Positions 1,227-33,632 of a stretch of 64,000 nucleotides of DNA are shown here, piece after piece. Source of the DNA: an uncultured Gammaproteobacteria bacterium. GTDB taxonomy: Bacteria > Actinomycetota > Acidimicrobiia > Spongiisociales > SHLN01. The position numbers and the translations under genes are program-made. How positions within the stretch are numbered: position 1 is the stretch's first letter; the number at the start of each line of letters is the position of its first letter. Location of the stretch: contig CAXMQV010000058.1 in assembly GCA_964195905.1 (NCBI GenBank), positions 21,865 through 85,864 on the forward strand, written 5' to 3'. The notes beneath the pieces were generated by a model. The model did not search any database. It saw only the letters and a program-made list of their open reading frames with translations, and was not told where the DNA came from.

Positions 1227-2195
1227 ATGCGTGCGATACAAGTAGCGGCCACCGGGGGGAGCGACGTCCTCGAGTGGATCGAGCTTCCCGATCCGGTTGC
1301 CGGCAACGCCCAGGCGGTGGTGGCGCTCGAAGCCTGCGGAGTCAACTTCATCGACGTGTACCAACGCACCGGCCTCTATCCCGTTGCGCTTCCGTTTGTG
1401 ATCGGCCAGGAAGGGGCCGGGGTGATCACTGCCATCGACCCTGCTGCAGGGCTGTTCGAGGTTGGCGATCGAGTCGTCTTCACGGGAGTCCTCGGCGGCT
1501 ATGCCGAGCAGATTGTCGTGCCGGTCGAGGGTCTCGTGAAGGTGCCAGACGGCATCGGGACCGACACGGCAGCCGCCGTCATGCTCCAGGGCTTGACCGC
1601 CCATTACCTGGTACACGACACCTATCGCCTCGGTCCCGAGTCGCGCTGTCTCGTTCACGCCGGGGCCGGAGGGGTCGGCCAGTTGCTCATTCAAATGGCC
1701 AAGCAGCGTGGCGCCACTGTTTTCGCAACAGCCGGTACCGAAGACAAGGCGCGATTAGCACAACAGGCTGGAGCCGACCACGTCACCGTCTACACGCAAT
1801 CGGATTTTCGCGAAGAGATCGAAGCGGTGGTGGGGGAGCGGAGCCTCGACGTTGTCTACGACTCGGTCGGGCAGGCCACGTTCGAGGGTGGCCTCGAGCT
1901 GCTTGCTCCGCGGGGGATGATGGTGCTGTTCGGACAATCGAGCGGTCCGGTTGCTCCCTTCGACCTCGGGGCGCTTGGCCGAGGCGGCTCACTCTTTGTA
2001 ACCCGACCGCGACTCGGGGATTACATCAGCGGACGGGCCGAGCTGGTGGCTCGCTCGGGGGCGCTACTGGCGGCGGTGGGCGGCGGCCAGCTGGCGGTGC
2101 GGATCGGTGCCACGTTCCCACTGGCACAAGCCGGCGCTGCCCATGAGGCGCTCGAGGCACGCGCCACCACCGGCAAAGTTCTGCTCATTCCCTAG
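1227..2195 (+). CDS. qor: NADPH:quinone oxidoreductase (MDR/zeta-crystallin family)
   Basis: Full-length MDR fold: GxGxxG-like AGAGGVGQLLIQMAK Rossmann, N-terminal GroES-like domain, length 322 aa. Confidence 0.8.
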   Translation: MRAIQVAATGGSDVLEWIELPDPVAGNAQAVVALEACGVNFIDVYQRTGLYPVALPFVIGQEGAGVITAIDPAAGLFEVGDRVVFTGVLGGYAEQIVVPVEGLVKVPDGIGTDTAAAVMLQGLTAHYLVHDTYRLGPESRCLVHAGAGGVGQLLIQMAKQRGATVFATAGTEDKARLAQQAGADHVTVYTQSDFREEIEAVVGERSLDVVYDSVGQATFEGGLELLAPRGMMVLFGQSSGPVAPFDLGALGRGGSLFVTRPRLGDYISGRAELVARSGALLAAVGGGQLAVRIGATFPLAQAGAAHEALEARATTGKVLLIP

Positions 2196-3444
2196 CCGGG
2201 TGCGGGTCGATCCGGCGCTCGAGGGCGGCCAGCACGGGGAGCGGCTGTCCACTGAGGTACCGAATGAGCGCCCCGCCTGCGGTGCTCACGTAGTCGATGT
2301 CGGCGAGATCGATGAACCGGGCGGCACTGCTCACCGTGTCCCCGCCGCCGATGACCGTGAGACCGCTTGCCCCGGCCACCGCCGACCAGATGCGGGAAGT
2401 GCCATCGGCGCCGGCGGGGAGCTCGTAAACGCCGGGTGGTCCGTTCACGAACACCGTGGCGGCCTGCCCGATGATCTCCTCATAGCGGGCGATGGTCCGG
2501 GTCCCGATGTCGATGATGAGCTCGTCGACCGGAAGATCGGCCACCAGGACTTCGCGCCGTTCACCGTCTTGCTCGACCGCAACATCAGTCGGTACGAGGA
2601 TCGACTCGGGGAACAGTCCGAGGAGACGCCGGGCGGTTGGTATGAAGCTGTCGAGGCCCCGGTCGGCAATGAAGCGGTCGACCGCCGGTCCGAGCTCGTG
2701 GCCGGATGCGATGAGCATGATCTCGCCGGTCACCCCTCCGGTCAGAACCCGGTCGGCCGTCGCCTCGGTGAGGGCCCGTTCCAGCATTCCGAAAGCATCG
2801 CTGATCTTGAGACCTCCGAGCACGAACACACAGGGCGAGGCGGGCGCATCGGAAACCCTCTCGAGCATCTCAACTTCCTGGATGAGCAGGCGGCCGCCGG
2901 CCGACGGAAGAACCTCGGGAAAGGCCACGAGGGACGGTGCGCTCCGGTGAGCAGCGGCAAACGCATCGTTGACGTAGAGGTCGAAGAGAGGTGCCAGATT
3001 CCGGACCAGGTAGGTGTCGGTCATCTCCGGCGCGGTCAATCTGACCGTCGACTCGAACGAAGTCATCTCCTCGCTGTAGATGCGCACGTTCTCCAGCAGC
3101 AGAATCTCCCCGTCGGCTAGTTCCCTGATCCGTGCTCTGGCAGCGGGCCCGGCGCAGTCGTCGATGAACGAAACCGGCCTGGCCAGCTTCTCGGCCAGCT
3201 TGGTGGCGTGTTGATGGAGCGAACCGAAGTTCTCGTAGTCGAGGACGTCACCCTGATGGGCGAGGATGACGACTCTGGCGCCGGCATCCGCCAGATCACG
3301 AATGGTGGGGAGGCTCCTGTCGATGCGATTTTCGTTGACGATTTCCCTCGTCGCCGGGTGGAGTGGCGAGTTGATGTCGACCCGCACGAGCACCCGTTTG
3401 CCCCGAACCTCGAACTCGTCGAACGAGGCGATATCGGGCGGCAT
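2185..3444 (-). CDS. pgk: phosphoglycerate kinase, archaeal-type sequence signature
   Basis: RVDINSP ... ILAHQG N-terminal motifs, C-terminal VFVNGPPGVYE ... GGGDT nucleotide-binding motifs; 6 nt downstream of gap. Confidence 0.85.
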   Translation of the reverse strand: MPPDIASFDEFEVRGKRVLVRVDINSPLHPATREIVNENRIDRSLPTIRDLADAGARVVILAHQGDVLDYENFGSLHQHATKLAEKLARPVSFIDDCAGPAARARIRELADGEILLLENVRIYSEEMTSFESTVRLTAPEMTDTYLVRNLAPLFDLYVNDAFAAAHRSAPSLVAFPEVLPSAGGRLLIQEVEMLERVSDAPASPCVFVLGGLKISDAFGMLERALTEATADRVLTGGVTGEIMLIASGHELGPAVDRFIADRGLDSFIPTARRLLGLFPESILVPTDVAVEQDGERREVLVADLPVDELIIDIGTRTIARYEEIIGQAATVFVNGPPGVYELPAGADGTSRIWSAVAGASGLTVIGGGDTVSSAARFIDLADIDYVSTAGGALIRYLSGQPLPVLAALERRIDPHPARE

Positions 3445-3450
3445 CGCCGC

Positions 3451-4467
3451 TCAGACCAGCCCGAGGTAGGTGTTGGTGAGAGCGGTCGCTTCGGCGACCT
3501 CGGTCTGCATGGGGACCGAGGCACGAATGGCATCCATGGTCTCGGGGATCACGACCGACTCCTGGGGGATGTTGATCGCGAGCATGATGTCGTCGCCTGA
3601 CATGCCGATGGTCTCATCGAAGAGACCGATCTCATAGAGATCGCCGCGCGGTTTCCCGAGCATGCGACCGTACTGGAAGAGTGAGGTGTTCGAGTTGAAC
3701 CCGTCGGCGATCTTCACGACTCGCACCCGGGGGTCGTCTTCGAAGGCTCCGAGTACGGCATCCTTGGTCGCCCTCTCTTTCGGAGTGGCCACGATGGTGA
3801 TGATGTGGCCATGGGTTACCGGGGTATGGACGAGGAGGCCGGTGGCCTTGACCTGGGGCATGATCTCCATGAGGTCGACGGCCTGGTGGTTCGGGATCGG
3901 GTCCATCTCCAGGACGTCGACGAGCCCCCGATACGTGTCACCGGGATCGGCTACCCGGCGGATGATGGTGATGGCGACTCGCTCAACGCCAAACGCCCGG
4001 TCAAGACCGGCCACCGCCCGAATCAGACCCGAGGTATTGCATGAGGTGAGTTTGAGGAAGTCCTGGCCGACCCCTTTGGCGTAGTTGGCATTGTGGAAGA
4101 AGACGTCGGCGATCTTGCCGGATTCCCCGCCCTGGAAGACTGCCTTCAAGCCGTGCTCGACATACTTCTCTTTGTTCTTGGCGCCGATGCCGGCCCCGGT
4201 CGCGTCGAGCATGACGTCAACGCTGGTGAGGAGATCATCGAACTCGCCCGAGACCGGGATACCGGCGGCGGCGAGATCGGCGGCGGCCCCGGGGATGGCG
4301 GCGAAGAGGTTGTACGGCATCCCGCGCTCGGCGAGGGCCCGTATTCCGAGGGTCGGCTTGACGTCGGCGACGCCTACCAGCTCCATGTCGTCCTGGAGGT
4401 CGACGCCGTCGGCCAGACGCTGTCCGATGGTCCCGTATCCGGCGACACCGACTCGAACCTTTTCCAT
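3451..4467 (-). CDS. gap: glyceraldehyde-3-phosphate dehydrogenase, type II (archaeal-type)
   Basis: VAGYGTIGQR N-terminus, GIGAKN..KY.E.G.KA.FQGGE, catalytic TSCNTSGL, IRRVADP, DDPRV; collinear with archaeal class II GAPDH rather than bacterial GapA. Confidence 0.85.
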   Translation of the reverse strand: MEKVRVGVAGYGTIGQRLADGVDLQDDMELVGVADVKPTLGIRALAERGMPYNLFAAIPGAAADLAAAGIPVSGEFDDLLTSVDVMLDATGAGIGAKNKEKYVEHGLKAVFQGGESGKIADVFFHNANYAKGVGQDFLKLTSCNTSGLIRAVAGLDRAFGVERVAITIIRRVADPGDTYRGLVDVLEMDPIPNHQAVDLMEIMPQVKATGLLVHTPVTHGHIITIVATPKERATKDAVLGAFEDDPRVRVVKIADGFNSNTSLFQYGRMLGKPRGDLYEIGLFDETIGMSGDDIMLAINIPQESVVIPETMDAIRASVPMQTEVAEATALTNTYLGLV

Positions 4468-4541
4468 CTCATACCTCCTGGAATTGCGGGCCGCAGGAGG
4501 GCCCGCCGTGGTATCGCCAGGGTAGTGCCGCGCCGCCCCGG

Positions 4542-5552
<1,011 letters not shown>

Positions 5553-5620: not shown

Positions 5621-6262
5621 TCAGACCCGGTCGTGGGGAACCACGTACCAGAGAATCATGAGGAAGTGGAAGAGGCTTCCAAGCACGACCAGGATATGAA
5701 ACACCTCGTGGTGCGAGAAGATCCGGGGAAACAACTGGGGCCGCTCGTTTGCCAGCAATATCAGCCCGATGGTGTAGGAAAGCCCACCGGCGATCATGAG
5801 GAGGATGGCGCCGCCCGATAGCTGGTCGACGAGTTCCAGGAAGGGGACGATAGCGAACCAACCCATCGTGGTCTGAAGCGTGATCGAAATCCAGTCGGGC
5901 ACCTTGGGAAAGGCGATCTTCTGAATGATCCCGACCGCGGCGGCACCCCAGATGACGGTGAGGGTGATTGAGCGCCAGGCACCGTCGAGCACGTTGACGG
6001 CGATCGGGGTGTACGTTCCTGCCACCAGCACGAAGATCATCGAATGATCGACCCGCTGCATGCGCTTCTTCCACGTCTCGCGCCAGGGGACCGAGTGATA
6101 GAGGGCGCTGGCGGTATAGAGGCCCATCAGGCTGATACCGAAGATGATCATGCTCACGACCCGGGCGGCGTCGGGGGTCGATCGGATGATGAGAAGGGCC
6201 ATTCCGGCCGCCGACACCACTGCGGCGGACCCGTGGAGGAAGCCTCGCACGGGATTGGTCAT
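5621..6262 (-). CDS. hemolysin III / PAQR family channel protein
   Basis: 7-TM profile with conserved HxxxH...SALYH motifs; start taken at [11 protein letters not shown] (ATG 6262). Confidence 0.75.
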
Positions 6263-6384
6263 CTTGCCGAGGCGAATCCTGTCAGTCACAACGGCACCAA
6301 GATACAGGAAATCAGGGTTTGGTCGTCGCGACGGCTTGGAAGACTGCCACCTACACTCAAGCGAACGTTGAGCCTGGGGGGCAT

Positions 6385-7314
6385 ATGCACGTTGTATTCG
6401 GAACCGGCGCATTGGGAGCGGCCGTCGTTGAAGAGCTGGTGGCCCGCGGCGAATCGGTCGCGGCGGTGAATCGCAGCGGCAGCAGTGACCTACCCGACGG
6501 CGTCGAAATCCGCGCTGGGGACGTCACCGACCATGCGTTCGCGAGGGACGCCGCCGCCGGAGCCGCCACCATCTATTTTGCTCTGAATCCTCCGTATCAC
6601 CAGTGGGCCGATCTGTTCCCGGGCCTGCAGGAGTCGGTTATCGAGGCGGCCATCGCCACCGGCGCCAAGCTGGTGGCGCTCGAGAACCTCTACCCGTACG
6701 GGGTGCCGCAAGCCGATTTCCTCACCGAGGGCCACCCGATGGCAGCCCATACCCGCAAGGGCCGTGTGCGCGCCCAGATGCACGAGCGGCTCATGCGAGC
6801 CCATGAAGCGGGCCAGCTGCGCGTGACGGCTGCCCGGCCTTCTGACTACTTCGGCCCTCGCACGGTCGCCTCGGCCGGCGACTTTCGAGTGTTCGGGCCT
6901 GCCATGGCGGGCAAGACTGTCCGGGTGCTCGGAGACCCGAATGCGCCTCACAGCTATACGTACACCGCCGACGTCGGCACGGCTCTGGCCGTGCTCGGGA
7001 CCGACGACCGGGCCGATGGCCAGGTGTGGCACGTTCCCAGTCCGCCCCCACTCACGGCAGCCGAGTTCGTCGGCCGGATCGCGGTGGCGGCCGGGACTTC
7101 GGCCAAGACTGCCAGCGTTCCGAAGGCATTGTTCCGGGTCATTGGAATGTTCAACAAGGCCGCCGGAGAGCTCGGTGAAATGATGTACGAGTTCGAACAG
7201 CCGTTCCGGATGGACAGCAGGAAGTTCGAGGACACCTTCGGGATCACCGCCACCCCGCTGGATACGGCGATTGAGGCGACGGTTGCCTGGTACCGGGCTC
7301 ACCCGCCCACATAG
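6385..7314 (+). CDS. NAD-dependent epimerase/dehydratase family (extended SDR) protein
   Basis: MHVVFGTGALGAAVVEELVARG Rossmann start at ATG 6385; ~310 aa atypical SDR. Confidence 0.7.
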   Translation: MHVVFGTGALGAAVVEELVARGESVAAVNRSGSSDLPDGVEIRAGDVTDHAFARDAAAGAATIYFALNPPYHQWADLFPGLQESVIEAAIATGAKLVALENLYPYGVPQADFLTEGHPMAAHTRKGRVRAQMHERLMRAHEAGQLRVTAARPSDYFGPRTVASAGDFRVFGPAMAGKTVRVLGDPNAPHSYTYTADVGTALAVLGTDDRADGQVWHVPSPPPLTAAEFVGRIAVAAGTSAKTASVPKALFRVIGMFNKAAGELGEMMYEFEQPFRMDSRKFEDTFGITATPLDTAIEATVAWYRAHPPT

Positions 7315-7580: not shown

Positions 7581-8509
7581 CCATCACCTAGAACCTCGAG
7601 CACCTCGGCGGCGTAGTCGAGGCCGAAGCCACCGAGGATCTGCAGGTAGTAGCGGGTGATCCCGGCTTCGGCGACGGGACCAAAGGTGTCCCGGGCCTCT
7701 TCATGGGTGCCCATCGGGACCGCGATGGCCCGGCTCTGCGCCTCAAATCGGTCAACATCCACCCCACGGGCCGCCGCCAGGGATTCCAGTCTCCTTCGAT
7801 AGGTGGCGAAATCGGGGCCGATCACCGGGGGGGAGACGCTCGACAGCATGATTGAGGAAGGATGGCGTCCCGCCAGAACGGCAGCCTCGTTGGCTCGCTC
7901 GATGCGAACCGTCAGATCGGCCGCCGGGCGGGAGTAGATGTTGAATTCGTCCGCAAAGCGGCCGGCCAGCTCCGGCGTTCGACGGGGACCCGATCCGCCA
8001 ACCATGAGACGAAGGTTGGGAGCTTTTGGCTGATGGTCGATCGGTTCGAGCTGGTAGTGAGTCCCGGCGAACCCGTCGGCGCCGTCGTCGAGAGCCGCCC
8101 GGAGGTAGGCGAAAGCCTCTTCCAGCCGATCGAATCGTCCTGCCCAGTCGGGGAGCGGGAAGCCGAAGACCTCGTGCTCCGACTTCATCCAGCCGGTTCC
8201 GACCCCAAGCGTGAAACGTCCGGCGCTCATCTCGTCGATGGCCAACCCGAGTTTGAGGAGGGCGGCCGGGTGGCGGTATGTGATGGGGGACACGAGGGCA
8301 GCTATTTGCAGCTTCGACGTCTCGACGCTCAGGCCGCCCAGGTACGGGTAAATGTCGGCCGAACGCGTGTCGGGCCCGTCGCCGGTGGGGGAGCGGCCGG
8401 CCAGGTAGTGATCGGGGAGCGCGAAACACGCCAGCCCTCTGGCCTCGGCCCAGTGGGCGGCCGTCCGAACGTCGTCGTATGAGCCGCGGGTTTGGAGACC
8501 GAACTCCAC
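7577..8509 (-). CDS. LLM-class (luciferase-like) flavin/F420-dependent oxidoreductase
   Basis: MEFGLQT start, TIM-barrel LLM collinearity (PDHY, GVGTGW, RLMVGGSGPRRT). Confidence 0.75.
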   Translation of the reverse strand: MEFGLQTRGSYDDVRTAAHWAEARGLACFALPDHYLAGRSPTGDGPDTRSADIYPYLGGLSVETSKLQIAALVSPITYRHPAALLKLGLAIDEMSAGRFTLGVGTGWMKSEHEVFGFPLPDWAGRFDRLEEAFAYLRAALDDGADGFAGTHYQLEPIDHQPKAPNLRLMVGGSGPRRTPELAGRFADEFNIYSRPAADLTVRIERANEAAVLAGRHPSSIMLSSVSPPVIGPDFATYRRRLESLAAARGVDVDRFEAQSRAIAVPMGTHEEARDTFGPVAEAGITRYYLQILGGFGLDYAAEVLEVLGDG

Positions 8510-8510
8510 C

Positions 8511-9005
8511 TCAGTCGCGGAAGTTCACGTACTGGAGTGGGAGCCGGAAATCGAGTTCCCTGAGGAGGGCGATGACCTGCTGAAGGTCATCGCGTTTCTT
8601 GCCCTGGATGCGGAGCTGATTGCCCTGGATCTGCACCTGAACCTTCAGCTTGGAATCTCGCACCGTCTTGGACAGTTCCTTGGCAGCATCCTGAGCGATT
8701 CCTTGATTGAGTAGGAACCTCGCTTGATAGCGGCCGCCACCCACTTCCTTGGGGGTCCCGCCGCTGAGCGCTTTGAGAGAAACCTTGCGGCGGACCAGCT
8801 TCTCTTTCAGGACGTCGATGGCCGCCTCGAGCCGGTGATCGGTGGAGGATTCGACCACGATCTCGCTCTCGACGACGCTAATTGTCGAGTCGGTGCCGCG
8901 AAAGTCGTATCGGTTGGCCAGTTCGCGCGAAGCCTGGTCGACGGCGTTGGTTACCTCTTGGGGGTCTACTTCTGAAACGATGTCAAAGGTGGGCATGGAG
9001 GGCAC
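8511..9005 (-). CDS. yajQ: YajQ-family nucleotide-binding protein (UPF0234)
   Basis: MPSMPTFDIVSEVD...RYDFRG...QGNQLRIQGKKRDDLQ full-length YajQ pattern, 164 aa. Confidence 0.8.
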   Translation of the reverse strand: MPSMPTFDIVSEVDPQEVTNAVDQASRELANRYDFRGTDSTISVVESEIVVESSTDHRLEAAIDVLKEKLVRRKVSLKALSGGTPKEVGGGRYQARFLLNQGIAQDAAKELSKTVRDSKLKVQVQIQGNQLRIQGKKRDDLQQVIALLRELDFRLPLQYVNFRD

Positions 9006-9115
9006 ATTACTGCGTGGATCCGGCTGATCGGGATCGGGGGCGCGAATAGGGCACGCGATAGGCTTTGAACGATCGGGGGCGGTGACCCCTGAGATGCCGA
9101 CTTTGAGGACGAGGT

Positions 9116-10711
9116 ATGAGAACGCTCGATGATCTGAACATCAAACCCCGCGGGGAGGTCTACTGGGACTCACCGTCACCGCTCCTGTACGAGCACACGC
9201 TGGCGGCCGGCTTGGGAACTCTGGCCCACAAGGGCGCCCTCGTTGTCGACACCGTCCCGTACACCGGCCGGAGCCCAAAGGACAAATTCGTCGTTCGCTA
9301 CCCGGAGACCGAAGGTGAGATCTGGTGGGGCCCGATCAATCAGCCGATGGAGCCCGAGGTGTTCGATGCGCTTTACGCCAAGACCGCCGAGTACCTGTCG
9401 GGCCGTGACAAGCTCTACGTCCAGGACAACTACGCCGGAGCCGACCCGCAGTACAGCCTCGGAATCCGGGTGGTGACTGAGAGTGCCTGGCATGCCATGT
9501 TCGCTCGCAACATGTTCATCCTGCCCCGGGTCTTCACCCAGGGCGACGAGGTTCAGACGTTCTTCAATGCCGATTTCAGTGTCGTGCACGCGCCGTTCCT
9601 CCATGCCGATCCGGCGGTGGACGGGACCCGCAGCGAGGTCTTCATTTGTGTGAGCCTTGAGCGCAAGATCCTTCTCATCGGCGGATCCCGGTACGCCGGC
9701 GAGATGAAGAAGTCGGTGTTCTCGGTTATGAACTACCTGCTGCCCAAGTCCGGTGCGCTCAGCATGCACGCCTCGGGTTCCGTAGGTAAAGAGCGCGGCG
9801 ATACGGCCGTCATCTTCGGCCTGTCGGGAACGGGCAAGACGACACTCGCCACCGACCCGACCCGTCTCATGATCGGAGACGACGAGCTGGGGTGGGGTGA
9901 GTCCGGGGTCTTCAACATCGAGGGTGGGTCCTATGCCAAGACCATTCGCCTCAGCGTCGAAGACGAGCCCCTCATCCATGAGGCCGCCAATCTGTTCGAG
10001 TCGATCCTCGAGAACGTGGTGGTGCACGAGGACTCGCGCCGCCCCGACTTCGACGACGACACGAAGACGGAGAACACCCGCACCTCGTACCCGCTGGCCC
10101 ACCTTCCCAACATTGCCCCGCATTTCCGGGGAGGGCACGCCTCCAACATCGTGTTCCTGTCGGCCGACGCCTTCGGGGTGCTCCCCCCGATCGCCCGGCT
10201 CACGCGTGAGCAGGCTATGTATTACTTCGTGAGCGGGTACACGTCGAAGCTGGCGGGCACCGAGCGTGGCATCGTGGAGCCGGAGGCCACGTTCAGCCCG
10301 TGCTTCGGGGCCCCCTTCCTTCCGCTGCCGCCGGCCTATTACGCCGACGTCCTCAAGGACAAGATCAACGAGTTCGAGCCTGGTGTCTGGATGATCAACA
10401 CCGGGTGGTCGGGCGGTCCCTACGGGGTCGGATCACGAATCCGCATTCCCCATACCCGCGCCATGCTCAACGCTGCCCTGGCGGGTGATCTTGACGGTGC
10501 GGAGTTCAGGGAGGACCCGGTGTTCGGTCTCGAAGTGCCGACCGAGATCGCCGGGGTGCCGACCGAGATTCTCACTCCGCGTGATACCTGGGCCGACACC
10601 GATGCGTTCGACGCCCAGGTGCGCAAGCTGGCCGGAATGTTCCGGGATAACTTCATTCAGTACGCCGAGAACATGGACCCGGCCGTGATGGAGTCGGGTC
10701 CGCCCGGGTAG
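9116..10711 (+). CDS. pckA: phosphoenolpyruvate carboxykinase (ATP)
   Basis: [10 protein letters not shown] kinase-1a motif, 531 aa, collinear with ATP-PEPCK. Confidence 0.9.
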
Positions 10712-24736: not shown

Positions 24737-24832
24737 AGCGTTTATCACGAGCGGTGGAGGGACAGGCCCTTTGAAACCGCGGCAACCGGCCCTCAGGCAC
24801 GGTGCCAATGCCTGATCGATGAGCTGCCACCG
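24737..24832 (+). promoter_or_regulatory. SAM-I (S-box) riboswitch aptamer in the metH leader
   Basis: tTATCAcGAGcGGtGGAGGGAcaGGCCCtttGAAaCCgcGGCAACC ... GGTGCcAAtgCCTG matches the S-box core (AUCAAGAGNGGNGGAGGGA-GGCCC-UGAA-CC-GGCAACC ... GGUGCUAA-CC); 60 nt further lies a GAGCGG/CCGCTC hairpin that can alternatively pair with the GGAGGGAC element, then AGGAG RBS and metH ATG. Confidence 0.65.
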
Positions 24833-24893: not shown

Positions 24894-27800
24894 ATGCGAG
24901 CACACAACGTGAGTTCTTACCTGGACGCCGTTCATTCCGGCTCGGTCGTCATCCTCGACGGCGCCACCGGCACATCGCTCCAGGGATTCGATCTCTCTCT
25001 AGACGATTTCGGTGGGCCCGCCTTCGAGGGGTGCAACGAATTGCTGAGCGTGACCCGGCCGGACGTCATCGAGACCGTTCACCGGTCCTTCTTCGAGGTT
25101 GGCGTCGACGTCACCGAGACCAACACGTTCGGAACCTTCCCGGTGCCCCTCGGCGAGTACGGGATCGCAGATCGAACCTACGAGCTGGCGGCCGCCGCCA
25201 CGGCGATTGCCCGTCGCGTGACCGACGAATTCATTGCCCGGGATGGGCGTCCCCGCTGGGTGGCCGGGTCGATGGGACCGGGCACCAAGTTCGCCTCCCT
25301 CGGCCAGATACCGTACGCCGAGCTCCGCGATGGGTACGAGATCGAGGCCGCCGCCCTTCTCGATGCCGGTTGTGACTTCATCCTCATCGAGACCCAATTC
25401 GACCTGCTGGGGGTGAAGGCCGCCATGAACGGGGCTCGCCGGGCGATGGCTCATTCAGGGCGAGACGTGCCGCTCCAGGTGCAGGTGACGATCGAGCTAA
25501 CCGGCCGGATGCTTCCGGGCACCGAGATTGGTGCCGCCCTCACGACCATCGACGCCATGGGGGCCGACGTGGTGGGGATCAATTGCGCAACCGGCCCGGC
25601 CGAGATGTATGAGCCCCTCCGCTACCTGTCTGAGAACTCGCGGATGCCGATCTCGGTGATCCCCAATGCCGGGCTGCCTCAGGTGGTCGACGGTGAGATG
25701 GCCTATGACCTGACCTCCGAGGCTCTGGCCGGCCACCTCGAGGCGTTTGTCAATGAGTTCGGGGTGCACGTCATCGGCGGGTGCTGCGGGACCACCCCTG
25801 CCCATCTGAAAGCCGTAGTTGACCGGTGTCGGCCCCTGACGCCCGCCCCACGCACCCCCATCCATACTCCCGCCGCCGCATCTACGTATTCGAGCGTTCC
25901 GTTTCGGCAGGACACGTCGTTCCTCATCATCGGTGAGCGCACCAATGCCAACGGCTCGCGGGCATTCCGGGATGCGCTGCTGGAGGAAGACGTCGACGCC
26001 TGCATCAGCATTGCCGAAGCCCAGGTCACCGAATCGGCCCACCTGCTCGACCTGTGCGTTGACTATGTCGGGCGCGACGGCGTGGCCGACATGAACCTGC
26101 TCGGCGGTCGTTTCGCGACCGAGATCACGGTTCCCATCGTCCTCGACTCCACCGAACCGGAGGTGATGGAGGCTGGCCTCGAGTTGATCGGCGGGCGCAG
26201 CGTCCTGAATTCGGCCAACCTGGAGGAGGGCGATGCGCCCGGATCCCGCCTCGACCGGGTGTTCCAACTTGCCAGGGAACACGGTGCCGCCGTCATCTGC
26301 CTCCTCATCGACGAGAAGGGCCAGGCCCGGACGCTCGATTGGAAGCTCGAGATCGCTCATCGCATCCACGATCTCGCCGTCAACCGGTACGGACTGGAGC
26401 CATCCGATCTCATCTTCGACCCGCTGACGTTCCCGCTCAGCACCGGCGGCGACGATCTGCGGCGTGACGCCATCGCCACCATCGAGGCCGTCACTCGAAT
26501 CAAGGCCGAGCTTCCGGGGGTCTCCACCGTTCTGGGAGTCTCCAATGTATCGTTCGGCCTCTCCCCCGTCTCCCGCCGGGTGCTGAACTCAGTGTTCCTC
26601 CATGAGTGCGTGGAAGCCGGCCTCGACTCCGCCATCATCCACGCCGGCAAGCTGCTCCCCCTCAACAAGATTCCCGACGAGCAGCGCCGGGTGTGCCTTG
26701 ATCTCATCTACGACCGGCGCCGCGAGGGATACGACCCGCTCGAGGCGTTGCTGGAGATGTTCGCCGATGTCGTCGTCGAAGCCGCCGAGGTGGAGGACCG
26801 GAGCGGCTGGCCGGTCGAGCGGCGCTTGCGGGAGCGCATCGTGGACGGTTCCCGGCCCGGTATCGAGGACGACCTGGACGAAGCCCTCGCATCCGGGATC
26901 GGCCCACTCGCCATCATCAACGACATCCTGCTGTCGGGGATGAAAACGGTCGGCGAGCTATTCGCGTCTGGAGAAATGCAACTGCCGTTCGTGCTCCGAT
27001 CGGCCGAAACGATGAAGGCCTCAGTCGCCTATCTGGAACCGAAGATGGCGAAGGAAGAGTCGAGCACCCGGGGCTCGATCGTGCTGGCGACGGTGCGGGG
27101 CGACGTCCACGACATCGGCAAGAACCTGGTCGACATCATCCTCACCAACAACGGCTTCGAGGTCCACAATCTCGGCATCAAGGTCGACATCGACGACATG
27201 GTCCGGACGTTCCAGGAGGTGGAGGCCGACGCCATCGGCATGAGCGGATTGCTCGTCAAGAGCACCCTCATCATGAAGGACAACCTCGACGAACTGACCC
27301 GTCGCGATCTCAGCCACATTCCCATCCTGCTGGGCGGGGCCGCTCTCACCCGTTCATACGTCGAGGATCAGCTCCAGGATCGGTACCAGGGCCGGGTCTA
27401 CTACGGGAAGGACGCCTTTGCGGGCCTCGACGCCATGCAATACATCGTCGCCGGGGAAGCGGGCCCGGAACCCGAGCGGCTGCGGGGCCGCCAGCTTCCC
27501 GCTCGCTCGTCCGAGCCCGAAACGCCGCAACCCGTTGCGCGGCCGGCCCGCGCCCCATCGGTTGGCGTCGACAACGAAGTCTTCGTCCCGCCCTTCACCG
27601 GGAGCCGGGTCGTCAAGGGCATCCCGATCGATGACGTGGCGGCCTACCTCAATGAGACCGCCCTCTTCCGCAACCAGTGGCAGTACCGACCTGAGGCCGG
27701 CGAAACGGATGCCGACTTCAAGGCCCGGCTCCGCTCAATGCTCCGGGAGCAGCTGGCGGCGGCGCGGGCCGACGATCTTCTGACGCCCCAGCTTGTCTAC

Positions 27801-28397
27801 GGCTACTTCCCCGCCAACGGCGACGGCGATGACCTCGTCATCTGGGAGGACGCCGATCGAACTCGGGAGCAGGCCCGGTTTTCGTTCCCCCGTCAACCCG
27901 AGGATCCGTTTCTTTGCATCGCCGATTTCTTCCGTCCGATGGACGCCGGAGTCGATTATGCGGCCTTTCACCTCGTTTCGATTGGGTCACGAGTCTCGGA
28001 GCGAACCGCCGAGCTGTTCGCGGCCGACCGCTACAACGACTATTTGCTCCTCCACGGGCTCGGGGTCGAGATGGCCGAGGCGCTGGCCGAGTACTGGCAC
28101 AAGCGGATTCGGACCGAGTGGGGGTTCGTCGATGAGGACGGGCCGTCGCTGGGCGGCCTCTTCAAGCAGCAATATCGGGGCGGCCGCTACTCGTGGGGCT
28201 ATCCGGCCTGTCCCGACCTTGAGGACAATGAGACGGTGGCGACGCTGCTGGGTGCCGACCGGATCGGCATCACCGTCGGCGAAGAAACCGGCTATCAATA
28301 CCAACCCGAGCAGTCGACGTCGGCACTGATCTGCCACCATCCCCAGGCCAAGTACTTCATCGCCAAGACCCGCCGCCAAATGCGGGGTGAGGAGTAG
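24894..28397 (+). CDS. metH: cobalamin-dependent methionine synthase
   Basis: 1167 aa; Hcy-binding, pterin-binding, B12-cap/DxHxxG (GDVHDIGKN) and AdoMet-activation modules all present. Confidence 0.9.
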   Translation: MRAHNVSSYLDAVHSGSVVILDGATGTSLQGFDLSLDDFGGPAFEGCNELLSVTRPDVIETVHRSFFEVGVDVTETNTFGTFPVPLGEYGIADRTYELAAAATAIARRVTDEFIARDGRPRWVAGSMGPGTKFASLGQIPYAELRDGYEIEAAALLDAGCDFILIETQFDLLGVKAAMNGARRAMAHSGRDVPLQVQVTIELTGRMLPGTEIGAALTTIDAMGADVVGINCATGPAEMYEPLRYLSENSRMPISVIPNAGLPQVVDGEMAYDLTSEALAGHLEAFVNEFGVHVIGGCCGTTPAHLKAVVDRCRPLTPAPRTPIHTPAAASTYSSVPFRQDTSFLIIGERTNANGSRAFRDALLEEDVDACISIAEAQVTESAHLLDLCVDYVGRDGVADMNLLGGRFATEITVPIVLDSTEPEVMEAGLELIGGRSVLNSANLEEGDAPGSRLDRVFQLAREHGAAVICLLIDEKGQARTLDWKLEIAHRIHDLAVNRYGLEPSDLIFDPLTFPLSTGGDDLRRDAIATIEAVTRIKAELPGVSTVLGVSNVSFGLSPVSRRVLNSVFLHECVEAGLDSAIIHAGKLLPLNKIPDEQRRVCLDLIYDRRREGYDPLEALLEMFADVVVEAAEVEDRSGWPVERRLRERIVDGSRPGIEDDLDEALASGIGPLAIINDILLSGMKTVGELFASGEMQLPFVLRSAETMKASVAYLEPKMAKEESSTRGSIVLATVRGDVHDIGKNLVDIILTNNGFEVHNLGIKVDIDDMVRTFQEVEADAIGMSGLLVKSTLIMKDNLDELTRRDLSHIPILLGGAALTRSYVEDQLQDRYQGRVYYGKDAFAGLDAMQYIVAGEAGPEPERLRGRQLPARSSEPETPQPVARPARAPSVGVDNEVFVPPFTGSRVVKGIPIDDVAAYLNETALFRNQWQYRPEAGETDADFKARLRSMLREQLAAARADDLLTPQLVYGYFPANGDGDDLVIWEDADRTREQARFSFPRQPEDPFLCIADFFRPMDAGVDYAAFHLVSIGSRVSERTAELFAADRYNDYLLLHGLGVEMAEALAEYWHKRIRTEWGFVDEDGPSLGGLFKQQYRGGRYSWGYPACPDLEDNETVATLLGADRIGITVGEETGYQYQPEQSTSALICHHPQAKYFIAKTRRQMRGEE

Positions 28398-32981: not shown

Positions 32982-33632
32982 TTAGTGAACGACGCTCCAC
33001 ACCGCGATGTAGTGGGCCGTGAACGCTGCGATCGTCAGTGAATGGAACACCTCGTGGAAGCCGTACCTCCGTTGGGAGGGGTTGGGACGCTTGGTTGCAT
33101 AGACGATCGCACCGAGGGTGTAGAGGATGCCACCCACAGCGATCAGCACCACCACGCCCGCGCCGGCTTCCTCGACCAGATCGGATATGAAGAAGATCAC
33201 TACCCAACCGACGACCACGTAGAGCGCCGTGGACAACCATCGGGGGGTACCGGTCCAGAAGAGTCTGAACACCACACCGACCAGCGCACCCGTCCATACG
33301 ATCGCCAGGAGTAGCTTGCCCTGGTCTTCTGGCAGCGCCAGAACCGCGAACGGGGTGTATGTCCCGGCAATGATCAAGTAGATGTTTGCGTGATCCATAC
33401 GCCGAAGCAGCGCCTCGAGCTTCGGCGACCATGTACCCCGGTGGAGAAGGGCGCTCACGCCGAAGAGCAAAACTGCGGTGGATATGAATACCGCCGAGCT
33501 GATGCGGCTGGCCGTGGTGGGCGCTGTGGCAACGAGCACCACTCCAGCAACGGTGGCAATCGGGAACATCGCGGCGTGCTGCCACCCACGGAGCGTCGGC
33601 TTCACCGGACGGACTGTCACATCGGAATGCAT
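32982..33632 (-). CDS. hemolysin III / PAQR family protein (second paralog)
   Basis: 7-TM with conserved HAN..IAGTYTPF and FHSLT motifs; paralogous to 5621..6262. Confidence 0.75.
   Translation of the reverse strand: MHSDVTVRPVKPTLRGWQHAAMFPIATVAGVVLVATAPTTASRISSAVFISTAVLLFGVSALLHRGTWSPKLEALLRRMDHANIYLIIAGTYTPFAVLALPEDQGKLLLAIVWTGALVGVVFRLFWTGTPRWLSTALYVVVGWVVIFFISDLVEEAGAGVVVLIAVGGILYTLGAIVYATKRPNPSQRRYGFHEVFHSLTIAAFTAHYIAVWSVVH

Follow-up and report, generated by a model that had tools for sequence, protein, structure and literature searches.

A class II GAPDH and archaeal-type PGK gene pair from an Acidimicrobiia bacterium belongs to a bacterial clade with a possible role in ATP-yielding D-malate formation

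The 64-kb stretch of DNA analysed here, referred to below as the window, comes from an Acidimicrobiia bacterium (contig CAXMQV010000058.1, positions 21,865 to 85,864) and carries, adjacent to one another on the minus strand, genes for an archaeal-type glyceraldehyde-3-phosphate dehydrogenase (GAPDH) and an archaeal-type phosphoglycerate kinase (PGK). An initial annotation made from the sequence read the pair as a lower-glycolysis core horizontally acquired from Archaea or, alternatively, as an unusual ancient form that had been retained. We place both proteins in a bacterial module that is probably not a glycolytic core, and we tentatively propose that its substrate is D-malic semialdehyde. 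The features at the locus, including open reading frames (ORFs) and their flanks, are as follows.

1227..2195, plus strand: convergent gene of the Zn-ADH/quinone-oxidoreductase family, overlapping the 3' end of the PGK gene by 11 nt and kept in the related contig L081
2185..3444, minus strand: ORF of 419 aa, archaeal-type PGK-family acyl-phosphate:ADP phosphotransferase (the module PGK)
3445..3450, minus strand: GAPDH-PGK spacer of 6 nt, GCGGCG; the junction TGA-GCGGCG-ATG is read directly from the sequence
3451..4467, minus strand: ORF of 338 aa, class II (archaeal-type) GAPDH-family phosphorylating aldehyde dehydrogenase (GAP2), a member of the bacterial clade described below
4474..4479, minus strand: Shine-Dalgarno sequence AGGAGG, 6 nt 5' of the GAPDH ATG, within the 77-nt ilvC-gap intergenic region
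4542..5552, minus strand: ilvC (ketol-acid reductoisomerase), 336 aa from the first ATG, 529.9 bits to NF004017 (cut-off 336)

The 6-nt spacing, already remarked upon in the initial annotation, implies that the GAPDH and PGK genes are co-transcribed, and their translation is probably coupled as well. As that annotation also stated, the pair sits directly downstream of ilvC, which is its upstream neighbour on the same strand at a distance of 77 nt; a promoter and terminator scan found no terminator-like or sigma-70-like site in the region between ilvC and gap. It is possible that ilvC is co-transcribed with gap-pgk, and it lies outside the conserved module. At the other end the convergent Zn-ADH-family gene marks where the unit stops. 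Scans for tRNAs and Rfam families returned nothing near the pair, and the surroundings are bacterial, as had been described: ordinary aerobic-bacterial genes throughout the window, including phosphoenolpyruvate carboxykinase (PEPCK), MetH with an S-adenosylmethionine (SAM) riboswitch, cytochrome b/c, SCO1 and ABC transporters.

The GAPDH is a class II enzyme. It matches the 'type II GAPDH' model NF003251 at 361.7 bits (E=3.5e-108, cut-off 185) and TIGR01546 at 267.7 bits (cut-off 232.9), passing both type II NCBIfam equivalogs, and reaches 21-33 bits with class I NCBIfam models. Its best structural matches are four archaeal enzymes (PDB 1CF2, 2CZC, 2YYY and 1B7G, 202-228 bits), as against about 35 bits for class I structures, and the hallmark motifs GYGTIGQR, SCNTSGL and IRRVADP are all in the translation. 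The PGK is likewise of archaeal type. It aligns full-length with PF00162 (residues 9-400, E=1.1e-105, 354 bits), carries the RVDINSP and ILAHQG motifs, and is closest in structure searches to the Pyrococcus horikoshii enzyme 2CUN (265 bits, with bacterial and eukaryotic PGKs at no more than 195); its identity is 35-46% to archaeal and 30-36% to canonical PGKs, and in a neighbour-joining tree the canonical bacterial and eukaryotic PGKs split from the archaeal-plus-module PGKs in 100/100 bootstraps. In both family assignments the initial annotation was right.

Such proteins are common in bacteria. The exact GAPDH sequence is present in public collections under the NCBI name "type II GAPDH [Acidimicrobiia bacterium]", so the genes as such have been named already, and type II GAPDHs have been noted in a handful of bacteria in the literature. 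Metagenomic GAPDH homologues of at least 70% identity number in the thousands; the best 120 GAPDH matches are all at least 70% identical and the best 120 PGK matches at least 60%, with named homologues among them almost always Acidimicrobiia or Actinobacteria. The motifs are therefore widespread in bacteria, in this lineage and outside it, which the initial annotation had itself named as a finding that would refute its reading. To define a set of loci, one genome per GTDB species was scanned, and all counts that follow are lower bounds among the matches listed. The scan listed at least 47 bacterial loci and one Asgard contig with 59-75% GAPDH identity to the window, after which identity drops sharply to 36-41% for the at least 32 archaeal loci listed. 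The bacterial carriers are Acidimicrobiia, Thermoleophilia, Anaerolineae, many Oscillospiraceae, other Clostridia (Dorea, Christensenella, Dysosmobacter), Spirochaetes, Victivallales, Porticoccaceae and Rariloculaceae, a clade that spans Actinomycetota, Chloroflexota, Clostridia, Spirochaetes, Victivallales and Proteobacteria. In a neighbour-joining tree the bacterial type II GAPDHs group together in a single clade that also encloses the Asgard sequence (100/100 bootstraps) and is separated from all sampled archaeal sequences by the longest internal branch. Members of this clade are 57-94% identical to each other (median 66) and 32-45% identical to archaeal enzymes, which among themselves range from 43 to 97% (median 52). 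That the bacterial clade is tighter than the archaeal enzymes suggests that it has spread between bacterial phyla.

Residues that distinguish the two groups were sought in an alignment of 83 type II GAPDHs, 47 from the bacterial clade (46 bacterial plus the Asgard sequence) and 36 archaeal, and in an alignment of PGKs. Roles were taken from Methanothermus fervidus GAPDH, where Lys33 binds NADP, His193/His194 form the inorganic phosphate (Pi) site, Cys140 and His219 are catalytic, and Arg167/Arg168 form the site for the phosphate of glyceraldehyde 3-phosphate (GAP), the substrate's anionic group (PMC12041015). In PGK the ligands of the 3-phosphate are arginines 65, 122 and 170 and those of the 2-hydroxyl are Asp23 and Asn25, while His62 makes contact with the bridging oxygen (PMC7729029). 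The corresponding positions in the window are these.

4363..4365, minus strand: GAPDH Asp35 codon, at the position of the NADP-binding Lys33 of M. fervidus
4033..4044, minus strand: GAPDH active-site S142-C143-N144-T145, the catalytic Cys motif, near-invariant in the 83 type II sequences
3955..3960, minus strand: GAPDH Arg170-Arg171, equivalent to M. fervidus Arg167/Arg168, the conserved anion site
3883..3888, minus strand: GAPDH His194-Gln195, where archaeal enzymes have His-His (M. fervidus His193/His194, Pi site)
3805..3807, minus strand: GAPDH His221, counterpart of the M. fervidus catalytic base His219, conserved and near-invariant in the 83 sequences
3247..3258, minus strand: PGK loop H63-Q64-G65-D66, in which His63 (human His62) is kept and Asp66 replaces the 3-phosphate ligand Arg65

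Seventeen GAPDH positions are at least 90% conserved within each group yet differ between the bacterial clade and the archaeal enzymes. At the Lys33 position, 94% of archaeal sequences have Lys and 98% of the bacterial clade have Asp, which is Asp35 in the window; with Asp in place of the NADP-binding Lys, the window GAPDH is predicted to use NAD+. The second His of the Pi site, present in 94% of archaeal sequences, is Gln throughout the bacterial clade (100%), the first (His194 in the window) being kept. Both sides of the Ser-Cys motif have also changed (R to K and V to T), and two further histidines of the archaeal enzymes are replaced (H223 to I, H301 to P). The window protein has all of these clade-specific residues (D35, K139, T141, Q195, I223 and P301) and retains the nucleophile Cys143, the base His221, His194 and Arg170/Arg171. 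Set beside the archaeal class II enzymes of known structure (M. fervidus 1CF2, Sulfolobus solfataricus 1B7G, P. horikoshii 2CZC and Methanocaldococcus jannaschii 2YYY), it is of the same family and length and has in common with them the SCNT motif, the initial His of SHH, the His active in catalysis and the paired Arg of the anion site, but differs in its 34-41% identity, its separate clade, Asp for Lys33, Gln for His194 and its genomic context.

At the Arg65 position of PGK none of 39 module PGKs is basic (22 D, 15 S, 2 G), whereas 17 of 18 comparison PGKs, drawn from Archaea, bacteria and eukaryotes, have R or K (p=1e-13). With 2CUN the window PGK shares the AHQG motif and the archaeal-type insertion after the ENxR motif; where the archaeal loop reads HQ(G/S)(R/K)(P/K)G, for example HQGRPG, the module has HQGD-x-LDY (HQGDVLDY in the window) and, in Oscillospiraceae, HQGS-D-IEY, so that Arg65 is lost. 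The other ligands (Asp23, Asn25, Arg38, His62, Arg122 and Arg170) and, on the catalytic and nucleotide side, Lys215, Glu343 and the Gly-rich loops are kept in the window and in 36-39 of the 39 module PGKs. As only Arg65 is lost, the residues for recognising a 2-hydroxy-acyl phosphate are intact and the pocket for the distal phosphate is short of one positive charge.

The genomic context of the relatives is the second line of evidence. The PGK gene lies immediately 3' of the GAPDH gene in 39 of the 47 listed bacterial loci, and in 28 of the 47, as against none of the 32 archaeal loci, the pair has one or more partner genes beside it (Fisher p=5e-9, uncorrected for relatedness), mostly on the same strand with short gaps. 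The partners, with the number of listed bacterial loci that have each, are as follows.

Two-subunit (split) transketolase: 17 of 47
LarA homologue, best match the LarAH6 malate racemase: 20 of 47
Malic enzyme: 7 of 47
Tartrate/D-malate dehydrogenase-family gene: 5 of 47
iolG, iolE, iolD and/or iolB-like gene: 11 of 47

In the cases scored, the assignments behind these counts pass curated cut-offs. Full-length Clostridial LarA homologues reach 560-584 bits with the Ni-dependent malate racemase (MAR) model (cut-off 500); IolD, IolG and IolE score 902, 480 and 423 bits, all above their cut-offs; and the tartrate dehydrogenase gene found directly after the PGK gene in Butyricicoccus scores 504 (cut-off 470). 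Typical is locus L017, with the order iolG-iolE-lacI-mar-GAP2-PGK-tktN-tktC-iolB-iolD. The remaining annotated neighbours are transporters and regulators, and none of iolC, iolJ or iolA was found among the annotated neighbours of the relatives' clusters. Compared with classical inositol catabolism (IolG-IolE-IolD-IolB-IolC-IolJ-IolA), these clusters share iolG, iolE, iolD and an iolB-like gene; unlike it, they are without the iolC kinase, the iolJ aldolase and iolA, and hold the two-subunit transketolase, the GAP2-PGK pair, the racemase and malic enzyme instead.

In one Faecousia metagenome-assembled genome (MAG; locus L030, 3928-5975, plus strand), IolN (280 bits, cut-off 245) and an IolO-like epimerase (268 bits, cut-off 300), both of the Thermotoga-type inositol route, precede a module of GAP2-PGK-MAR-transketolase-malic enzyme, and a sugar ABC transporter is also present; the module may be fed by more than one upstream pathway. 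The Spirochaete loci L015 (9811-10467) and L026 (5337-5984) have a small P-loop kinase-like ORF, and the two cluster together by BLAST; that of L015 has a weak CMP-kinase match and that of L026 has none at 1e-10.

Among the Acidimicrobiia the partners are of a different kind. The closest informative relatives of the window, L001-L003, L047 and the metagenomic L084 and L085 (70-76% GAPDH identity), have an Iso_dh gene directly 5' of gap-pgk. Its product scores 325 bits against the Pseudomonas putida tartrate dehydrogenase/decarboxylase 3FLK and 243 against Mycobacterium tuberculosis LeuB, which makes a housekeeping LeuB the less likely identity even though the PRK03437 LeuB cut-off is passed. 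The P. putida tartrate dehydrogenase family also decarboxylates D-malate oxidatively. L047, L084 and L085 have in addition a divergent cupin-TKN-TKC unit, continued in L084 and L085 by SDR, lactamase_B (metallo-beta-lactamase-fold) and MFS genes, and L002 has TKN-TKC about 1 kb 3' of pgk. Since the Acidimicrobiia clusters are without iol genes, the sugar or sugar acid that feeds them in Acidimicrobiia would differ from inositol. Two unrelated D-malate-consuming solutions thus appear beside the module, racemase plus malic enzyme or D-malate/tartrate dehydrogenase, and it is these recurrent neighbours, related to the Ni-pincer malate racemase LarAH6/MAR2 and to the P. putida enzyme 3FLK, neither of which is encoded in the window, that define the module's likely product.

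A C_GCAxxG_C_C-family protein is also conserved directly 5' of the tartrate-dehydrogenase-like gene (L084, 8238-8849; L085, 8304-8828). A second Acidimicrobiia arrangement, in L007, L009, L010, L013 and L048 (GAPDH at about 6001-7014 in L009 and L013), is without PGK and has the order 2-hydroxyacid dehydrogenase, SftI-like (sulfoquinovose-isomerase-family) isomerase, GAPDH-II and Gfo/Idh/MocA oxidoreductase; in L014 an SftI-like isomerase directly follows PGK. The window's own closest relatives, L081-L083 (94% identity), have the same HlyIII-ilvC-GAP2-PGK-ADH layout as the window, and ilvC-gap-pgk is limited to them, being found at no other listed bacterial locus. In the window ilvC stands alone, with neither ilvB nor ilvN beside it, and occupies the place where the closest informative relatives have the tartrate/D-malate dehydrogenase gene. 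Ketol-acid reductoisomerase reduces 2-keto acids to (R)-2-hydroxy acids; it is pure speculation that the window's ilvC might be a paralogue acting on D-malate.

Putting residues and context together, we tentatively propose that bacterial GAP2-PGK pairs, the window's included, form a substrate-level-phosphorylation module that would convert D-malic semialdehyde to D-malate with the gain of NADH and ATP, as the lower half of a transketolase route for the catabolism of myo-inositol and other sugar acids. Going by their annotation, the IolG, IolE, IolD and IolB-like enzymes of the iol-type clusters would take myo-inositol to 2-deoxy-5-keto-D-gluconate. By our own stereochemical reasoning this product of IolB, a D-threo-configured ketose whose C1 hydroxyl is free, could serve as a transketolase donor. 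Once transketolase had passed the C2 unit on to an aldose phosphate, what remained would be D-malic semialdehyde (OHC-CHOH-CH2-COO-), which is D-GAP with -CH2-COO- replacing -CH2-OPO3. GAP2, with Cys143 as nucleophile, His221 as base and Arg170/Arg171 as anion site, would carry the aldehyde through a thioester to the acyl phosphate using NAD+ and Pi, and the PGK-like enzyme would transfer the phosphate to ADP, yielding ATP and D-malate. Because the leftover C4 aldehyde would be D-configured, a racemase or an enzyme specific for D-malate would be needed next, and the annotated neighbours suggest that removal would be by malate racemase plus malic enzyme in anaerobes and by tartrate/D-malate dehydrogenase in Acidimicrobiia.

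Such a scheme would account for several features at once: for iolC, iolJ and iolA being missing while a D-malate enzyme or racemase is at hand; for the pairing of a phosphorylating dehydrogenase with a kinase, which would give anaerobes one extra ATP; and for the loss of the PGK distal-phosphate ligand together with the failed assay of a bacterial enzyme on GAP described below. For the window pair, the corresponding description would be an NAD-dependent D-malic-semialdehyde dehydrogenase and a D-malate-forming kinase, ATP-yielding and non-glycolytic, an identification that we hold at somewhat short of even confidence and that is made purely by orthology, through identity and the shared clade-specific residues.

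There are precedents for parts of this chemistry. The sulfoquinovose transketolase-dependent (sulfo-TK) route has a split transketolase, and the proposed scheme resembles it in that a ketose is cleaved by transketolase and the leftover aldehyde is then handled; the partners concerned are not in the window. In aspartate-semialdehyde dehydrogenase with aspartokinase, and in an engineered malate kinase with malate-semialdehyde dehydrogenase (PMC5481828), a GAPDH-superfamily dehydrogenase and a kinase convert a C4 dicarboxylate, its acyl phosphate and its semialdehyde into one another. The existence of such acyl-phosphate and semialdehyde systems makes the proposed chemistry feasible, although they differ in being reductive and ATP-consuming, in acting on the carboxyl distal to the 2-substituent, and in using a kinase of the amino-acid-kinase fold rather than the PGK fold.

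The strongest alternative, and one that we consider doubtful but well worth weighing, is that the two proteins are a genuine archaeal-type GAPDH and PGK acting on GAP and 1,3-bisphosphoglycerate, and serving the cell as its sole pair for lower glycolysis/gluconeogenesis or as an additional set that is differently regulated or cofactor-specific, like Bacillus GapA/GapB. A number of observations weigh against the D-malate proposal, and many of them favour this alternative. The GAPDH passes the type II equivalog cut-offs and the PGK matches its Pfam family over the full length; the catalytic Cys and His and the Arg pair for the GAP phosphate are kept, as are six of the seven PGK ligands for 3-phosphoglycerate. 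Yeast PGK mutants at Arg65 stay active, so the loss of that residue is compatible with PGK activity. Some Archaea (L051, L058, L067, L076 and L080) have gap-pgk operons in the same gene order as the window. Searches of the 64-kb window with tblastn and Pfam found no transketolase, malate racemase, malic enzyme, tartrate dehydrogenase or iol gene; the pair's sole same-strand neighbour is ilvC, and a gluconeogenic PEPCK lies 4.6 kb away. Neither a second, canonical gapA of class I nor tpiA turned up in the window, a negative that carries little weight for a stretch of 64 kb. In the Spirochaete loci L015 and L026 there is no transketolase within 6 kb, and the route in these clusters may differ. 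Finally, the trees are neighbour-joining (distance) trees only.

It also should be considered that one relative has a neighbour fitting glycolysis. In L040 (3306-4898, plus strand) an ORF like 2,3-bisphosphoglycerate-independent phosphoglycerate mutase (iPGM, 464 bits) lies just 5' of iolG-GAP2-PGK; the match comes in two stretches and covers the C-terminal part of the model only, and it is the only neighbour seen that fits a genuine 3-phosphoglycerate product. The PEPCK of the window is an ATP-dependent enzyme at 9116-10711 on the plus strand, opposite to gap-pgk and with unrelated genes between; its proximity is a weak hint of a gluconeogenic setting, or of oxaloacetate/malate handling.

Against a genuine GAPDH and PGK stands, in the first place, the linkage with partner genes, which it leaves unexplained, and the fact that the partner clusters have no other enzyme to oxidise the aldehyde left by transketolase. 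It also sits poorly with the absence of Arg65 from all 39 module PGKs and with the predicted preference for NAD+ (Asp35), as opposed to an archaeal-style, NADPH-dependent anabolic role. Clostridia moreover have canonical glycolysis. A published assay is that of Koendjbiharie et al. (2019), who produced all three proteins annotated as GAPDH in the Clostridium-like Pseudoclostridium thermosuccinogenes, one of them of type II: both class I GAPDHs were active with NAD+, the type II enzyme CDQ83_07070 was inactive on GAP with NAD+ or NADP+, and the authors described functional evidence for class II GAPDHs in bacteria as nonexistent (PMC6543838). The force of this result is lessened by the use of heat-treated E. 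coli extract in the assay of CDQ83_07070 (PMC6543838), and the membership of that protein in the present clade and its flanking genes were not confirmed, the supplement being an expression gel.

A further alternative, which we judge unlikely overall, keeps the chemistry and changes the aldehyde. Candidates are tartaric semialdehyde, with tartrate as product, malonic semialdehyde, which IolJ forms in the classical route, and other fragments of sugar acids, perhaps depending on lineage. For the Acidimicrobiia tartaric semialdehyde is a live alternative, as their partner enzyme is closest to tartrate dehydrogenase and their clusters have cupin, SDR, lactamase_B and MFS genes in place of iol genes; at further Acidimicrobiia loci, which have no PGK, the GAPDH gene is accompanied by those of an SftI-like isomerase and a Gfo/Idh/MocA oxidoreductase. 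Likewise in L030, with its IolN and IolO-like genes, a keto-acid would leave a dihydroxy C4 aldehyde, and the absence of iolA from the iol clusters also speaks for this alternative. On the other hand, the malate racemase, which passes its equivalog cut-off, and malic enzyme point to malate in particular, and conservation of the 2-hydroxyl ligands Asp23 and Asn25 in PGK argues against malonyl phosphate. The tartrate dehydrogenase does not discriminate, given that the P. putida enzyme also decarboxylates D-malate.

Horizontal acquisition, the main reading of the initial annotation, is effectively refuted as a recent event that brought both genes straight from an archaeon. The two proteins are indeed nearer to archaeal than to canonical bacterial enzymes. 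However, the codon-usage and GC3 (third-position GC) comparison proposed in that annotation shows the genes to be compositionally native: by codon-usage distance GAPDH ranks 27th and PGK 9th among 44 window genes, GC3 is 0.83 and 0.80 in a window of 0.79±0.03, and the GC profile is flat. Identity to sampled archaeal homologues is 34-41% for GAPDH and 35-46% for PGK, compared with 59-73% and 44-65% to the rest of the bacterial clade, which is monophyletic, and the ilvC-gap-pgk layout is also found on related metagenomic contigs. Native composition together with these identity levels excludes a recent transfer. What stands of the initial annotation, then, is the archaeal type of the enzymes; the pair is neither a recent acquisition nor rare, and it is probably not the glycolytic core.

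An old archaeal origin is another matter, and for the PGK it is plausible. Module PGKs are monophyletic in 95/100 neighbour-joining bootstraps, and their placement is weakly supported: with Asgard in 40/100, with Methanomassiliicoccales in 20/100, and with a split of canonical plus haloarchaeal PGKs from the rest in 57/100. On such weak support, nesting within one particular archaeal lineage was set aside. For the GAPDH, a class I-rooted tree recovers archaeal type II enzymes as monophyletic in 23/60 replicates, so the rooting leaves sister and nested positions undecided. The Asgard member of the clade, L044, is a 1.3-Mb contig assigned to Candidatus Borrarchaeum weybense; its bacterial-clade GAPDH (6001-7017, plus strand) is 59% identical to the window's and its PGK (8029-9213, minus strand, hence opposite to the GAPDH) has Asp at the Arg65 position, which suggests that an archaeon received it from bacteria, or else an intermediate form. 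In the haloarchaeal loci L070, L074 and L079, type II gap, pgk and class I gap lie within about 5 kb. In the Methanomassiliicoccales L067, L075 and L076, ilvB-like genes lie just 5' of gapII-pgk, with ilvC as well in L067 and L075. Ancestral synteny was considered for the ilvC adjacency and set aside as coincidence, because no other listed bacterial locus has ilvC there.

That the pair is a decaying remnant, stranded when the lineage lost its catabolic cluster, is hardly credible: the transketolase and tartrate-dehydrogenase neighbours of the 70-76% relatives are indeed missing here, but neither ORF is disrupted, every catalytic residue is present, the Shine-Dalgarno sequence is strong and codon usage is host-like, and 93-94% GAPDH identity across related contigs, with many cluster members, indicates purifying selection.

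If the D-malate proposal is true, bacterial genes in their thousands are wrongly labelled by annotation pipelines as glycolytic GAPDH and PGK, which inflates calls of "complete glycolysis" for MAGs. It would also mean a new substrate class for two textbook enzyme families, and with it a novel form of GAPDH/PGK chemistry. The catabolism of inositol and sugar acids would gain a new branch, through which gut Clostridia, Spirochaetes and environmental Acidimicrobiia would ferment inositol or sugar acids by an ATP-yielding, transketolase-based route. The widespread Ni-pincer malate racemases would at the same time gain a metabolic rationale and a source of D-malate. Papers on the LarA superfamily have identified malate racemases and note malic enzyme as context; GAPDH, PGK, transketolase and inositol are absent from their main text. 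The new point here is what bacterial type II GAPDH and PGK do. It is not on record in the literature searched, which left most subscription journals uncovered and held nothing else on a transketolase-dependent inositol route, on malic semialdehyde in this setting or on the function of bacterial type II GAPDH.

Two further observations concern the rest of the window. The SAM riboswitch (24739-24825, plus strand; RF00162, 72.5 bits against a gathering score of 44.4) lies directly 5' of metH, the B12-dependent methionine synthase gene at 24894-28397, and with MTHFR, a Cys/Met PLP enzyme and a PALP enzyme nearby the region looks like a methionine-cycle neighbourhood. There are also two paralogues of a haemolysin-III-family membrane protein within the 64 kb, both on the minus strand, at 5621-6412 and 32982-33632.

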